Assembly (NCBI GenBank): GCA_001822835.1
Contig: MHSS01000013.1
Coordinates: 10,321 to 74,320 of the forward strand
Length of the DNA: 64,000 nucleotides
Source of the DNA: Candidatus Terrybacteria bacterium RIFCSPHIGHO2_01_FULL_48_17
Lineage (GTDB): Bacteria; Patescibacteriota; Minisyncoccia; Terrybacterales; 2-01-FULL-58-14
Reading direction: 5' to 3'
Part shown: piece after piece, positions 30,557-37,236 of the stretch
Layout of the letters: the number at the start of each line of letters is the position of its first letter
How positions within the stretch are numbered: position 1 is the first letter of the stretch
Notes under the pieces: generated by a model
Databases searched by the model: none
What the model was told of the DNA's origin: nothing
What the model saw: the letters and a program-made list of their open reading frames with translations, nothing else
Translations under genes and position numbers: made by a program

Positions 30557-31540
30557 ATGCTAAAACATATTTTATCCCAATCAATTCTTGCGACGGTGGC
30601 GTATGCGGATGCGCTAAACATGCCGCTTACCGCAATGGAGGTATGGCGGGGATTGGTTGGGGTACAGGGCACAGGGTACAGGGGACAGGGAATAGAGAAT
30701 AGGGCAAAGAACGCTTCGAGTTTTTCAGAGATTTTCTTTATGCTCAAATTACTAAAAGAGCAAAAGAAAATCTCGGAGCAGCGCGGCTTTTATTTTTTGC
30801 CAGGGAAAGAGGATTTGGTTGCGGAGCGCTTGTGGCGCATGCGGGTGGCGGACGAAAAATGGAAAAAACTGATGGGTATTGTGCGGTGGTTGCGCGCGGT
30901 TCCTTTTTTGCGGGCGGTTTTTGTTACCGGTTCTTTGGCGTTAAATAACACGCGCGAAAATAGCGACTACGATATTTTTTTGGTAAGCGCTCCCGGCCGC
31001 ATTTTTACTGTACGGTTTTTTGTAACACTTATGTTAAAAATGTTTGGCATGTATCGTTCGGATGCATGTGTAGCGGATCACGTCTGTCCCAACCACTATG
31101 TTACCGAGCGAAGTTTAGCGATTCCGTTCCATTCGCTCTACACCGCCCATATTTTTGCAACATGCGTGCGCACATGGAGCGTTGACCAAGATATCAAGGA
31201 ACGGTTCATGCATGTAAATAACTGGATACATGACTATATACAAATAGCGCCAGAAATCCCTCGCGCAAATCGGCATACGCTTCCGGATATATGGGTTGCG
31301 AAAATAATACGCGGTATTGGCGAGGTTACGTTGGGCCCGCCCGTGGGCGGGGTATTGGAAGGGATGGCTCGCTTCCTCCAGCTTGTCAAAATCCGCGCAA
31401 ATCCCAAAACAAAGTATCCTGGCAGCGGACACGTGGTCGCAAACGATGAGATGTTGGCATTTCATCCAAGCTCACCCGAATTCGGGGTACTTGACAAATA
31501 TCATACTAATATGCTACAATATAAAACGTCAGTAGATTGA
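30557..31540 (+). CDS. Pol-beta-superfamily nucleotidyltransferase domain protein (hypothetical)
   Basis: GSLALNNTRENSDYDIFLV fits the hG[GS]-x10-DxD minimal NTase motif. An alternative start at ATG 30740 lies downstream of a GGGTACAGGG repeat tract. Confidence 0.55.
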   Translation: MLKHILSQSILATVAYADALNMPLTAMEVWRGLVGVQGTGYRGQGIENRAKNASSFSEIFFMLKLLKEQKKISEQRGFYFLPGKEDLVAERLWRMRVADEKWKKLMGIVRWLRAVPFLRAVFVTGSLALNNTRENSDYDIFLVSAPGRIFTVRFFVTLMLKMFGMYRSDACVADHVCPNHYVTERSLAIPFHSLYTAHIFATCVRTWSVDQDIKERFMHVNNWIHDYIQIAPEIPRANRHTLPDIWVAKIIRGIGEVTLGPPVGGVLEGMARFLQLVKIRANPKTKYPGSGHVVANDEMLAFHPSSPEFGVLDKYHTNMLQYKTSVD

Positions 31541-33340
31541 GAAAGAAGGAATCCAAAAGAGAGGCGAAAACGGCTGTGGCCTGCGAAGGGATGAGGGCTA
31601 CGGTTCCCACGGTCTATGTTTTGCGGAGCCTGCGATGCGCGGAAGGACGAGCGGGGTGGAATAGCTCGTTTCTGGGGCGCCATCCTATCGCAATCTCCGT
31701 CCCCAAGCCGCTGGGCCAAAGAGGAAGAGCCGCGCCTCTCAAGGGCGATGGGATTGCCTAACACAATCCTTCGCTTCTCTTTTGGGTTTCTTATAGAGCC
31801 CCCTTGACAATGATGGTCGAGTTGTGCTAAGAGGAGTATACGATTTTAAAGATTAAATTGAGGTTCCTTCGGTTCTCTCCCTGCATTTATCATTCATCAT
31901 TAAGAATTATCACAAGACGAATGCAGAGAGAGGGCCGGATGGGCTCTCTTCTGATGAAATCCAGACGGCTGATCACCGTCTGGTCGGGTCCCAACCGTTG
32001 TTGCGCCCAAAAGGGGCATGCCCCGCCATCTTGCGGGGAGGAGCTATCCAAATCGCCCCTCGTCGGGTTTGCCTGGCGAGTATAAGCGAAGAGGAAGAGT
32101 TCTGCGGCAGCGGGGAGGCTGTGCCCGTTTATCGCCCTGTTGGCGATGGCGGGATCCCGCCCCGACGCTCTTGGGGACGCTCAAGAGAAGAAGGGGAAAT
32201 GCCTGATTGATCTGTCAAACAGTGGGGGCAAGCCGGACTTTCTTTCTGTCCCCCCTAAAGCAGCAGGGAGCGCAAGCGCTTGTGCGCAACGCTCGTCACG
32301 GCCCGGCGGTGGTCGAGAAGTTCTCTGCTGCAATTTAAGCACCTTTTCAAAAGAACGGATCCGAGGGAAACGATAACCTCGGAGCCCTCTCCCTGAACCA
32401 GTTTCATTTTCTGAACTCTGTACCCTGATGTCTGTACCCTGTTAACTGATTCAGAGAGAGGGACGCCCGTCTCTGCCGGTCTGGCTGGCACGTGTGGTGC
32501 CGGAAATGCTGGCTCCCGCCCGGCTCGATTGGAGCCGAGGGGCCTCTACGGGCGACCTCGCGCGATGGCGGCTAACCCGAGCCCTTTCCCGGGGCAAGCC
32601 CCGTCCGCGGCGGGGTGTGCAGGTTTCGGGCGATGCCGCAAAAAAGGTAGAATCATCTGAGGAGCGTGGAACCATTAAGGTTCCCGGGAAACTTGTGGGA
32701 AAGCGCTCCTCGGCCGGTCATAGTTCTTTGTTAGGGGATAAGCCCATTCGAGCCGATAAGTTCGGCTCTCCCTCCCTACATTTTTTTTCGAAAGCTTACG
32801 TGAAGAGCAGAAAGCGCCAACTATCTTTTTTTAACGCTTCTCTCTTATCACTTATTACTTTAAAGAATGTAGAGAGGGGGAGGATCTCTTTGCCGCAAGC
32901 TTCGGCGGAGAGGGTAGGGCCCGGGAATTCCTGCCCGAGTGCTACGAAAACGGCGCTCGAAAGCCTCGACCCCGCTTAATGAGGGTCGCTCCAGGGGGCT
33001 GCACAAACGCGGTCACTAAGTGCGGCGGTCAGTTACCGTCGCCGGAGCGGTCCAGCTCTTATTGCCGGAGCATCATAATCTCCGGCACCCCTCTCTGCAT
33101 TTATCATTCTTCATTTGTCATTGATAAATACAGAGAGGGGTTCTCACAACCCCATATTTTTACCCAGGGTCCGCCTGTAAAAAGGTGGCAAATGCCTAAA
33201 GGGCCCTAATGGTGTTTATACGCCCCGGTGTTGGCTCCAAGAGTCGATGCCGGGTCTTTCTTTATATACGAACTATGGGGGTCCGACCCCCATAGTATTT
33301 TTAGAAAAGCCTGCCGAAGAGTTTATCTGGGCTGGCTGAA
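31541..33340. other. 1.8-kb ORF-poor, GC-rich non-coding region with three related hairpins (CTCTCTG/CAGAGAG stems)
   Basis: No ORF over 161 aa on either strand, and none with recognisable motifs. Hairpins at 31866-31925, 32450-32474 and 33085-33137 (19-bp stem). Two hairpin loops begin CATTTATCATTC(A/T)TCATT. Confidence 0.4.
33274..33303 (+). terminator. Rho-independent terminator closing the ORF-poor region
   Basis: CTATGGGGGTCcgaCCCCCATAG tattttta. Confidence 0.55.
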
Positions 33341-33344
33341 GGGC

Positions 33345-33371
33345 TTGACAAGCCCTTTTGCTTTGTATAAA
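33345..33371 (+). promoter_or_regulatory. Sigma-70-type promoter for groES-groEL (TTGACA-15/16-TATAAA)
   Basis: TTGACA at 33345-33350, TATAAAT at 33366-33372, immediately upstream of CIRCE. Confidence 0.5.
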
Positions 33372-33387
33372 TAGATAAGTGGCGGCA

Positions 33388-33414
33388 TTAGCAGTAAACA
33401 CGTCGGACTGCTAA
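33388..33414 (+). promoter_or_regulatory. CIRCE operator (HrcA binding site)
   Basis: TTAGCAGTA-N9-GACTGCTAA is the 9-9-9 CIRCE architecture (consensus TTAGCACTC-N9-GAGTGCTAA), 100 nt upstream of groES. Confidence 0.8.
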
Positions 33415-33515: not shown

Positions 33516-33803
33516 ATGATAAAAATTAAACCTCTCGGTGACCGCGTGGTATTGGAGGCGGTCACGGAAGAGCAAAAGACAAAGTCGGGCATTTATCTTC
33601 CCGATACTGCAGATAAGGAAAAGCCGGAGCAAGGGAAAGTTGTTGCCGTGGGTCCCGGTAAAATGGAAGAAGGCAAGCGCATCCCGCTTGAGGTGAAAGT
33701 CGGGGATACGGTGCTTTTCACGAAATACGGACCCAATGAGGTAAAGGTCGATAATAAAGAATACCTTATTGCAAGGGAAGAAGACATCTTAGCTGTATTA
33801 GAA

Positions 33804-33806
<3 letters not shown>
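33516..33806 (+). CDS. groES: Co-chaperonin GroES
   Basis: [14 protein letters not shown]...[24 protein letters not shown] 96 aa. Confidence 0.93.
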
Positions 33807-35568
<1,762 letters not shown>

Positions 35569-36396: not shown

Positions 36397-37236
36397 ATGT
36401 TTACGTTTATTGTACTACTTGGCGTAATCGGGGCTGCTTTTTCGGCGTACTTTGAAACGCCGACTATTTTTTATATGGTGCTCGCGTTTTCCGTGCTCAC
36501 CACCTTTTTCTCTTATTGGTTTTCCGATAGGGTGGTGATCGCGCTTTCGGGTGCCAAACCCATTCAAAAACAGGATGATCCGCCATTATGGCGCATGATC
36601 GAAAACCTATCGATTACCGCAGGCCTTCCGATGCCAAAAGTGTATGTGGTGGAGGATCCAAGCCCCAATGCTTTTGCAACCGGGAGGGATCCAAAACATT
36701 CTGTTATTGCGGTAACTACCGGTTTGCGCCGGATGTTGGACGAATCGGAGCTTGAGGGAGTATTGGCGCACGAGCTTTCGCATATTGGTAACCGCGACAT
36801 GCTTGTCGCAACCATTGCCGCGGTGCTCGCCGGAATCATTGTGACCATCGTGCATATTTTTGTCCGTATGACGTTACGGGGAGGGCTTGGAGGGAATCGA
36901 CGGGGAAATGCTGGCGCCATTGCCTTAGTTGGTCTTATCGCCGCTCTTATTCTGGGGCCACTTGCCGCAACTTTGTTGCGCCTTGCGATATCCCGCAGCC
37001 GCGAGTTTTTGGCAGATGCGTCGGGTGCATTGCTTACGCGTTATCCGGACGGTCTTGCGCGCGCATTGGAAAAAATTGGCAACGCGCGGATTCCCATGCG
37101 GCATCGTTCAGACGCCATTGCGCATCTTTGGCTTTCTGATCCCCAAATTGAGGAACGCAAAACCTCATGGTTTGCAAAAATGTTTATGACCCATCCACCC
37201 ATGGAGGAGCGTATCCGCGCCCTTCGTCAACAGTAA
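36397..37236 (+). CDS. htpX: Zinc metalloprotease HtpX (peptidase M48)
   Basis: HELSHIGNRD (HExxH) and a downstream E in ...FLADASGALLT. Four TM segments. Start placed at ATG 36397 because 36295-36355 is repeat family B sequence. Confidence 0.82.
   Translation: MFTFIVLLGVIGAAFSAYFETPTIFYMVLAFSVLTTFFSYWFSDRVVIALSGAKPIQKQDDPPLWRMIENLSITAGLPMPKVYVVEDPSPNAFATGRDPKHSVIAVTTGLRRMLDESELEGVLAHELSHIGNRDMLVATIAAVLAGIIVTIVHIFVRMTLRGGLGGNRRGNAGAIALVGLIAALILGPLAATLLRLAISRSREFLADASGALLTRYPDGLARALEKIGNARIPMRHRSDAIAHLWLSDPQIEERKTSWFAKMFMTHPPMEERIRALRQQ

Follow-up and report, generated by a model that had tools for sequence, protein, structure and literature searches.

The large orphan RNAs OLE, GOLLD, ROOL, raiA and HEARO come from long, GC-enriched intergenic stretches without open reading frames (ORFs), and display many stable helices, conserved sequence islands and a narrow phylogenetic range. 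The element described here, situated at positions 31541-33340 of a 64,000-nt stretch of Candidatus Terrybacteria DNA (the window), shares these properties and likewise has its own promoter and terminator, both predicted. It lies between a nucleotidyltransferase gene and groES and consists of GC-rich modules (A to E) and four related hairpins (H1 to H4). Unlike the RNAs just named, it forms an array with variable domain order and content, internal promoters and one hairpin motif that recurs between the domains. The best overall explanation appears to be a multi-module non-coding RNA locus on the plus strand, highly expressed, with domains joined by shared hairpins; we put the probability of this reading at roughly 0.6. 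That the region is a transcribed locus for structured non-coding RNA is, judging from its sequence features, very probable.

Polycistronic precursors that are cleaved in double-stranded stems (rRNA operons, whose processing stems are cut by RNase III, tRNA arrays, and CRISPR pre-crRNA with its hairpin repeats) offer a second comparison. The array resembles them in the several stable RNAs predicted per transcription unit and in a recurring structured signal between these. None of its units, however, is an rRNA, tRNA or crRNA; the repeated elements are hairpins of 51-124 nt whose loops vary, and the spacers are structured domains of 80-450 nt. CRISPR-type periodic direct repeats (about 23-47 nt) are not found in the region. 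Unlike CRISPR pre-crRNA, there are no cas genes at the array, and its cleavage is something we infer from the sequence. Integron cassettes and CALINs also consist of exchangeable units bounded by imperfect 50-125-nt hairpins, with strain-variable content and some units that lack ORFs. The array however displays neither RYYYAAC nor GTTRRRY cores, and no integrase is found within ~10 kb (a nearby integrase is not required for CALINs). Its units moreover appear to be structured RNAs with their own covariation, and the hairpins of one lineage need G-U pairs of the transcribed strand. A reading of the hairpins as attC sites was rejected, the hairpin bases CCCCTCTCTGCATT ... AATRCAGAGAGGGG being without AAC/GTT cores on either strand.

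REP, BIME and REPIN elements and MITE or PATE elements share with the array imperfect palindromes with a conserved stem, inverted repeats flanking short non-coding segments, and local rearrangement. The array copies, in contrast, are not dispersed within the 64 kb, have unrelated interiors, and no RAYT or TnpA gene is seen nearby. Bacterial Y RNAs, found in tandem beside rsr, are likewise stem-closed modular RNAs lying side by side, and their sequence-conserved terminal helix resembles the conserved stem of 20 bp that closes module A; but the array gives no Rfam Y RNA match, has no Ro60/TROVE gene in its neighbourhood and shows no tRNA-like domain. By these comparisons a polycistronic precursor of stable RNAs would be the closest match to how the array works, and in appearance it would resemble the large GC-rich orphan RNAs, while the integron or CRISPR likeness of its cassette turnover is an analogy only. 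No account of such a locus was found in the literature.

Layout of the array and its relation to groES

The region is the longest ORF-free stretch of the window, between the 327-aa nucleotidyltransferase gene (30557-31540) and groES (33516-33806). Other ORF-free gaps measure 200-600 nt, some with tRNAs, and all are far shorter. An earlier note on this DNA, made from its letters, had put all other spacers under 150 bp, which is overstated, although the array gap is still the longest. The GC-rich character given in the same note is borne out: GC is 0.578 at 32001-33000 vs 0.43-0.54 in every other 1-kb bin (background ~0.48), with 0.57-0.63 in the modules and 0.41-0.52 in the hairpin stretches.

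Near-identical copies of the array are present in several Rifle-type groundwater assemblies. Homologous arrays are found at one chromosomal site, between the nucleotidyltransferase gene and groES, in only three Terrybacteria lineages, the window's included. The second lineage (loci L036, L011 and L037) has a GroEL 92% identical to that of the window and a complete array of 1.46 kb. The third (L012, L013, L014, L015 and L031) has a nucleotidyltransferase 51-53% identical and an array longer than the window's. The predicted features of the window array are as follows.

31491-31520, plus strand: promoter P1, TTGACA, an 18-nt spacer and a TG-extended TACAAT, agreeing with 11 of 12 consensus positions in a scan
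31546-31792, plus strand: module A, a GC-rich domain of ~250 nt with a 22-bp closing stem (31546-31567/31771-31792, inverted repeat I1)
31804-31833, plus strand: putative internal promoter P2, TTGACA, 18 nt and TGC-TAAGAG, read from the sequence
31868-31939, plus strand: hairpin H1, stem CUCUCCCUGCAUU / AAUGCAGAGAGAG, AT-rich loop with CAUUNNN heptads
31940-32384, plus strand: module B, a 445-nt GC-rich domain
32385-32462, plus strand: hairpin H2, stem CCCUCUCCCUGAACC / GAUUCAGAGAGAGGG, loop with CUGNNNN heptads
32463-32768, plus strand: module C, a 306-nt GC-rich domain (GC 0.63), the 3' half 73% identical to L036
32769-32879, plus strand: hairpin H3, ~111 nt, stem CUCCCUCCCUACAUU / AAUGUAGAGAGGGGGAG, an 85-nt loop ending in CUUNNNN heptads
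32880-33086, plus strand: module D, with a three-helix conserved core at 32987-33049
33087-33141, plus strand: hairpin H4, a 20-bp stem, 95% complementary, loop with CAUUNNN heptads
33142-33223, plus strand: module E, core helix 33166-33172/33201-33207, sequence ACCCAGGGYCCGCCUGUAAAARGGUGGC...GCCUAAAGGGCCC
33224-33254, plus strand: terminator 1, with a U-rich tail TCTTTCTTTA to 33263, from an intrinsic-terminator scan
33272-33296, plus strand: terminator 2, followed by ATTTTT to 33303, from the same scan

The four hairpins form a family. The earlier note had described three related hairpins built on a CTCTCTG/CAGAGAG stem; the relationship stands, but the count is four, as H3 was overlooked. 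One of the three, placed at 32450-32474, is merely the 3' arm of H2, a hairpin that is present in the minimum free energy (MFE) fold of the whole transcript and is kept in L036. The stems of H1-H3 are 16-20 bp with one mismatch each. All four hairpins have common arms, pyrimidine-rich on the 5' side (CCCUCUCUGCAUU) and purine-rich on the 3' side (AAUGYAGAGAGGGG). The CAGAGAGRGG motif with at most one mismatch occurs at 10 sites in the 64 kb against an expected 3.35, 7 of them within the array, and none of 100 shuffles reaches 10. A regular expression for the paired arms finds H1-H4 and nothing else in the window; in the other loci fetched, such pairs are confined to the homologous arrays except for a few chance matches on one strand.

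The loops of H1-H4 are AT-rich and made of imperfect 7-nt repeats (CATTNNN, CTGNNNN, CTTNNNN). The loop starts of H1 (31877-31901) and H4 (33091-33115), which lie 1214 nt apart, are 92% identical with CATTTATCATTC(A/T)TCATT in common, as the earlier note had observed. Apart from these two loops the modules of one array are mutually dissimilar, and a comparison of the array with the rest of the window yields only chance 12-18-mers. The H3 loop and arms are kept in L036, and its 3' arm is identical in L012, L013 and L031.

Conservation differs from module to module. In the closing stem of module A, 18 of 20 pairs are invariant across four sequences from two lineages (the window; L012, L013 and L014), while the module is absent from L036 and L011. 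Both the 5' and 3' parts of module B are kept in L012, L013, L014 and L031, the window having a central insertion of ~230 nt; its terminal hairpin shows compensatory changes, and the module is absent in L036. The D core is common to the window, L036 and L031. Module E is the most conserved block of the locus, with 88-96% identity to L036 and L012. Near the start of module B, a CUGAUGA box (31950-31956) is followed by a conserved hairpin, CCAGACGG...CCGUCUGG, an arrangement that resembles a hammerhead or C-box core. A hammerhead ribozyme was rejected as a candidate, as the box is not kept in L012 and no Rfam ribozyme matches.

P1 sits within the last codons of the nucleotidyltransferase gene and has a predicted start at ~31527-31530. 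A promoter at the P1 position is also found in L012, L013 and L036 and is absent from array-less relatives. The consensus scanner passed over P2 because position 6 of its -10 element is not T; the P2 arrangement of TTGACA, spacing and TGnTAA is kept in L011 and L036 and in L012, L013 and L014. L014 in addition carries an inserted perfect promoter, TTGACA-17-TATAAT. At the other end, the terminator that the earlier note had placed at the close of the region is recovered as terminator 2, and terminator 1 is a second one; both hairpins fold in the whole-transcript MFE structure. Terminator 1 is kept in L036, which, read from its sequence, has extra terminator-like hairpins ahead of the groES promoter. 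The terminator-1 hairpin of L012 and L031 carries an insertion of ~120 nt and no U-tract, and the array goes on. The promoter/terminator layout of the window recurs in L036, L012 and L031.

Downstream of the array, two further elements are read from the sequence, in keeping with the groES promoter proposed earlier:

33345-33373: groES promoter, TTGACA-17-TAAATA
33388-33414: CIRCE-like inverted repeat, TTAGCAGTA-N9-GGACTGCTAA

The CIRCE-like element is likewise seen in L031, L036, L040 and L041. A GenBank scaffold has an N-gap across the CIRCE region, directly after the array. The position of the array directly upstream of groES in three lineages, and a terminator directly after module E that is like a riboswitch-type expression platform, would fit a long 5' leader or regulatory RNA of groESL, such as a thermosensor or attenuator. 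We consider this very improbable: at least two terminator-like hairpins (two in the window, more in L036) precede a separate groES promoter and CIRCE-like operator, array-less relatives share the groESL arrangement, and 1.8 kb far exceeds known leaders. To our knowledge no leader approaches that length.

Coding potential and conserved structure

The region lacks conserved protein-coding potential. Its ten ORFs, one of 161 aa (32494-32979) and nine smaller, give no Pfam match at E<=1. A search of 1.84 billion protein representatives with the 161-aa ORF returns its own copies and one artefact and no protein family; the artefact, P0134 (E = 4e-56), sums 42 weak matches to one repeat protein of 4728 aa. 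The judgement of the earlier note that no credible ORF is present holds. Small ORFs led by Shine-Dalgarno sequences after the purine arms were also considered and dropped, as they are not conserved in L036.

The 161-aa ORF does exist, and its annotation by gene callers, as a protein of 157 or 229 aa, might suggest a protein gene in decay or several genes for small proteins. A decayed gene was one of the explanations offered in the earlier note; it was rejected, and we give either reading next to no credence. Besides lacking a Pfam match or any homologue beyond its own copies, the ORF is not kept in L036 or L012, and no conserved ORF is found in the arrays of these two loci, where the longest ORFs are 77 aa (L036) and 149 aa on the opposite strand (L012). 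Indels are blind to frame: 32 of the 41 gaps in the window-L036 alignment (653 columns, 77% identity) are not multiples of 3, and mismatches in the 161-aa frame fall evenly over the codon positions (27/29/27). In strain L001 (12210-12308, equivalent to the H3 loop of the window, about 32836-32849), a 14-nt deletion, equal to two heptads, changes the reading frame, and the spurious call of 157 aa becomes one of 229 aa. Collinear translated fragments of a known protein family, by which the earlier note would have recognised a pseudogene, are not found.

The array also appears to fall outside the known RNA families. Rfam 15 (4227 families) at the gathering threshold finds only two tRNAs in the window, both outside the region. 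At E<=10 the region gives only sub-threshold miRNA-like hairpins with 17-25 bits vs cut-offs of 40-171, and the arrays of L011-L014, L031 and L036 give no Rfam match. None of the families proposed for this check in the earlier note (GOLLD, ROOL, OLE, raiA, group II intron, RNase P, tmRNA and 6S) matches, nor do HEARO, SRP, group I introns or riboswitches. ARAGORN detects no tRNA or tmRNA in the region. On its sequence the array would represent a new family of structured RNA, unusual in its modular organisation, narrowly distributed and outside all curated families tested.

Predicted folds are mainly more stable on the plus strand. The z-scores vs dinucleotide shuffles, plus strand first, are -4.2 and -3.0 for module A, -5.1 and -3.0 for B, -2.8 and -0.1 for D, and -5.9 and -1.7 for 33137-33305 (E), and of the five coding controls, four score from +0.5 to -1.1. 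The covariation check on homologues, also called for earlier, gives compensatory changes among 3-5 sequences, both in the hairpins and in module A and the D core. Of the 83 pairs predicted in module A, 95.6% are formed, with 9 double-change pairs vs 2.7 in shuffles (0 of 500 reach 9) and 0-2 with slid partners. The D core is 94.7% paired and has 3 double-change pairs vs 1.0 in shuffles (14 of 500); one 8-bp helix of this core has three spellings in the three lineages with a G-U pair retained at one position. The E core shows scant covariation, its sequence being nearly invariant. An alignment of five hairpins displays compensatory double changes at 11 of 21 pairs. Sequence comparison thus gives modest evidence that module A, the hairpins and the D core keep their structure by compensatory change.

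The hairpins of relatives bear on the strand. The H1 orthologue in L012 has 17 bp with 5 G-U pairs, and its energy is -27.1 kcal/mol on the plus strand vs -8.8 kcal/mol on the minus strand. L012-type hairpins are in general much more stable on the plus strand and rely on G-U pairs present only there. Summed over 12 hairpins, G-U pairs number 40 on the plus vs 25 on the minus strand.

The whole-transcript MFE fold retains the closing stem of module A and the four local hairpins. As the same arms are present in every inter-module hairpin, the purine-rich 3' arm of each is the complement of the 5' arm in the hairpin that follows (inverted repeats I8, I11 and I12). In the predicted folds the arms can therefore pair either as local hairpins, which the MFE prefers, or as terminal helices that close the modules.

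Homologous arrays and module turnover

The order in the window is P1, A, P2, H1, B, H2, C, H3, D, H4, E and the terminators. In L036 it is P1, P2, H1, C, H3, D, H4, X, H2, Y, E and the terminators, with A and B missing and the H2-homologous hairpin placed elsewhere in the array, after H4. L012 has, besides module A, a further module closed by a stem, A2, which L013 carries twice; its B is shorter, its D differs in part, and a long extension follows on the 3' side. The L012 array extends ~1.9 kb up to the contig end, and that of L031 reaches groES. The modules of L012 and L031 are 91-99% identical. These two differ in a replaced block, which starts exactly where the 3' arm of H3 ends, and in a clean indel of ~200 nt. 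In the window, B and the H2 loop are bounded by two 3' arms that make up a direct repeat, CAGAGAGAGGG.

This variation in module content and order, seen among lineages and also among near-identical strains, argues for a string of separable modules and not for one fixed large RNA. A single multi-domain RNA of 1.7-2.5 kb, acting as a particle or scaffold like OLE, GOLLD or ROOL and with hairpins as uncut spacers, would agree with one promoter pair and one terminator pair that enclose the whole stretch, with stable, GC-rich domains all on the same strand, and with a 3' block E that is near-invariant in all lineages. We regard it as unlikely, because a variable domain order (A and B gone and H2 moved in L036, D partly replaced in L012) is hard to square with one tertiary fold, and because there are internal promoters, including the perfect one in L014, and no match to an Rfam large-RNA model. 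The proposal of the earlier note of a large structured non-coding RNA therefore survives in outline but not as one fixed RNA, given separable modules and at least two promoters.

The same synteny is found without an array in L040 (GroEL 74% identical) and in an Azambacteria contig (GroEL 71% identical), and the Yanofskybacteria orthologue of the upstream gene also lacks an array. A further GroEL match, P0011 on a 292-kb contig, is from an actinobacterium and is irrelevant. The intergenic position in array-less L040 (3730-3990) has two small ORFs with CxxC...CxxC patterns, zinc-ribbon-like. In L014 (2025-2513) and L015 (1437-1925), an inserted 162-aa ORF separates the nucleotidyltransferase gene from module A. 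This ORF finds no match in Pfam and comes with a terminator-like hairpin of its own, after which module A follows with a TTGACA-17-TATACT promoter.

Contigs of many assemblies end inside the array or at its edge, including the ends of L011-L014 and the starts of L038 and L039. In the species of the window, three contigs that come from different samples all stop at 31982-31992. These repeated ends suggest heterogeneity of the populations at the array.

Such breaks, together with strain-level presence or absence, would also be expected of a DNA-level hotspot, in which foldback or MITE-like cassettes have arms that serve as sites of recombination or transposition and RNA structure is incidental. 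In its favour, an identical inverted-repeat sequence flanks every module, the breakpoints of indels and replacements fall on the arms, and H2-H4 of the window fold equally well or better on the minus strand. The coincidence of breakpoints with arms leaves some room for the eroded mobile element suggested in the earlier note, for which no positive support was obtained. We consider a DNA-level hotspot improbable. No further copies of arms or modules are found in the 64 kb. Searches of phages and plasmids by blastn at a distant setting give nothing similar, and scans of viral contigs with a 19-mer of the A stem and an 18-mer of the H3 arm find nothing. No transposase, integrase or reverse transcriptase lies within ~10 kb of the array, and the arms are without attC cores. 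The module interiors show compensatory changes and conserved plus-strand G-U pairs, and the array occupies the same chromosomal site in three lineages.

A metagenome scan with a 19-mer of the H3 arm gives two real loci (L030, which is the same as L013, and L031) and three chance matches in an unrelated organism of 56% GC. The E-core 19-mer CCGCCTGTAAAAAGGTGGC is found at nine loci in genome contigs, all in unrelated bacteria (Desulfotignum and others), and these hits were set aside as chance.

The genes around the array show no recombinase. Pfam annotation over ~10 kb on each side gives PGI, SBP, SecG, UvrC, UvrA, PrsW, Cpn10/60, LemA, M48 and DnaG. The upstream product is a Pol-beta-type nucleotidyltransferase, in agreement with its earlier assignment, with a GS...DxD motif and invariant C177, N179 and H180. 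Its predicted model (pLDDT 85.5) displays a winged-helix-like N-terminus and a MNT/ANT/HalB-like core, a resemblance with E of only ~1e-3. The family is small and restricted to the Candidate Phyla Radiation, with only 7 homologues in 5.8 billion clusters. A functional tie between the array and this gene is unsupported, as orthologues without an array are present in Yanofskybacteria, Azambacteria and L040. Between groES and groEL, the spacer at 33805-33859 contains tandem repeats of 14 nt (AAATCCCAATGTCA x2.1) and 7 nt (AAAATCC x3.4); AT-rich heptad/14-mer slippage in this genome thus extends beyond the hairpin loops. A replication origin was dropped as a candidate because the cumulative GC skew climbs monotonically.

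A proposed precursor of separate RNAs

The reading of the region as a non-coding RNA locus draws on promoter and terminators on one strand, stability mainly on the plus strand, compensatory changes and the lack of a coding signal. Transcription would start from P1 inside the end of the nucleotidyltransferase gene, with P2 after module A as a second conserved promoter-like site, and would stop at the two intrinsic terminators, just short of the promoter and CIRCE element that belong to groES itself. The product would be a string of independently folding GC-rich domains A-E (80-450 nt) split by four hairpins with slippage-prone loops, whose 16-22-bp stems may insulate adjoining domains while these fold.

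The stems would also be the likeliest cut sites of an RNase III-type, double-strand-specific endonuclease, which would release separate stable RNAs from the precursor. RNase III substrates have stems in a size range that includes 16-22 bp, and flanking stems of this kind are found throughout: 22 bp in the A stem, 20 bp in H4 and 16-20 bp in H1-H3. That the hairpins are processing sites giving separate RNAs is a tentative proposal, to which we assign clearly less than even odds. The ends of a released domain would stay complementary through the common arm sequence and could zip into an end-protecting terminal helix, a helix already present in module A and, in relatives, in A2. At the DNA level, the repeated arms may act as short homologies for deletion, insertion and reordering of modules.

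Several points weigh against this reading. H2-H4 of the window are slightly more stable on the minus strand, and a recurrent C.A mismatch at one stem position corresponds to G-U on the opposite strand, so that the window hairpins alone leave the strand undecided. The fold z-score of module C, the weakest of the modules, is only -1.7, little better than shuffles. The fifth coding control, 300 nt inside the M48 peptidase gene (36400-36700), gives z = -5.4; a single z-score is therefore weak evidence, and the z-scores are supportive only. The covariation comes from three lineages in related groundwater metagenomes, and related sequences can beat shuffle controls even without structure. Promoters and terminators are consensus matches only, and the RNase III step is deduced purely from stem length. 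No partner protein for the array RNAs was identified, and the nucleotidyltransferase is also found in array-less relatives.

The array might further be a cassette system for RNA genes, in which the modules are independent RNAs and the hairpin is a signal both for processing and end-protection and for recombination. Although we think this more speculative and rather unlikely, reshuffling in such a system would account for the assembly breaks at the array. On this same uncertain footing, genome-reduced episymbiotic strains could gain, lose and reshuffle RNA modules, possibly under diversifying selection. If the cassette system is true, the array would be for RNA genes what integron or CRISPR arrays are in their own fields, an analogue of these. 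Should the region prove not to be transcribed, it would instead be a peculiar recombination hotspot of foldback repeats.

Genomes of the Candidate Phyla Radiation are ~1 Mb in size and contain little non-coding DNA. That such a small and compact genome keeps 1.5-2.5 kb of strongly promoted, protein-free, structured sequence suggests a function worth its cost. We know of almost no non-coding RNAs described from the Candidate Phyla Radiation. If the modules are real RNAs, they would constitute a new RNA family, and probably several, from this group, and domains strung between shared hairpins and reshuffled among strains would be an organisation undescribed for bacterial RNA genes.

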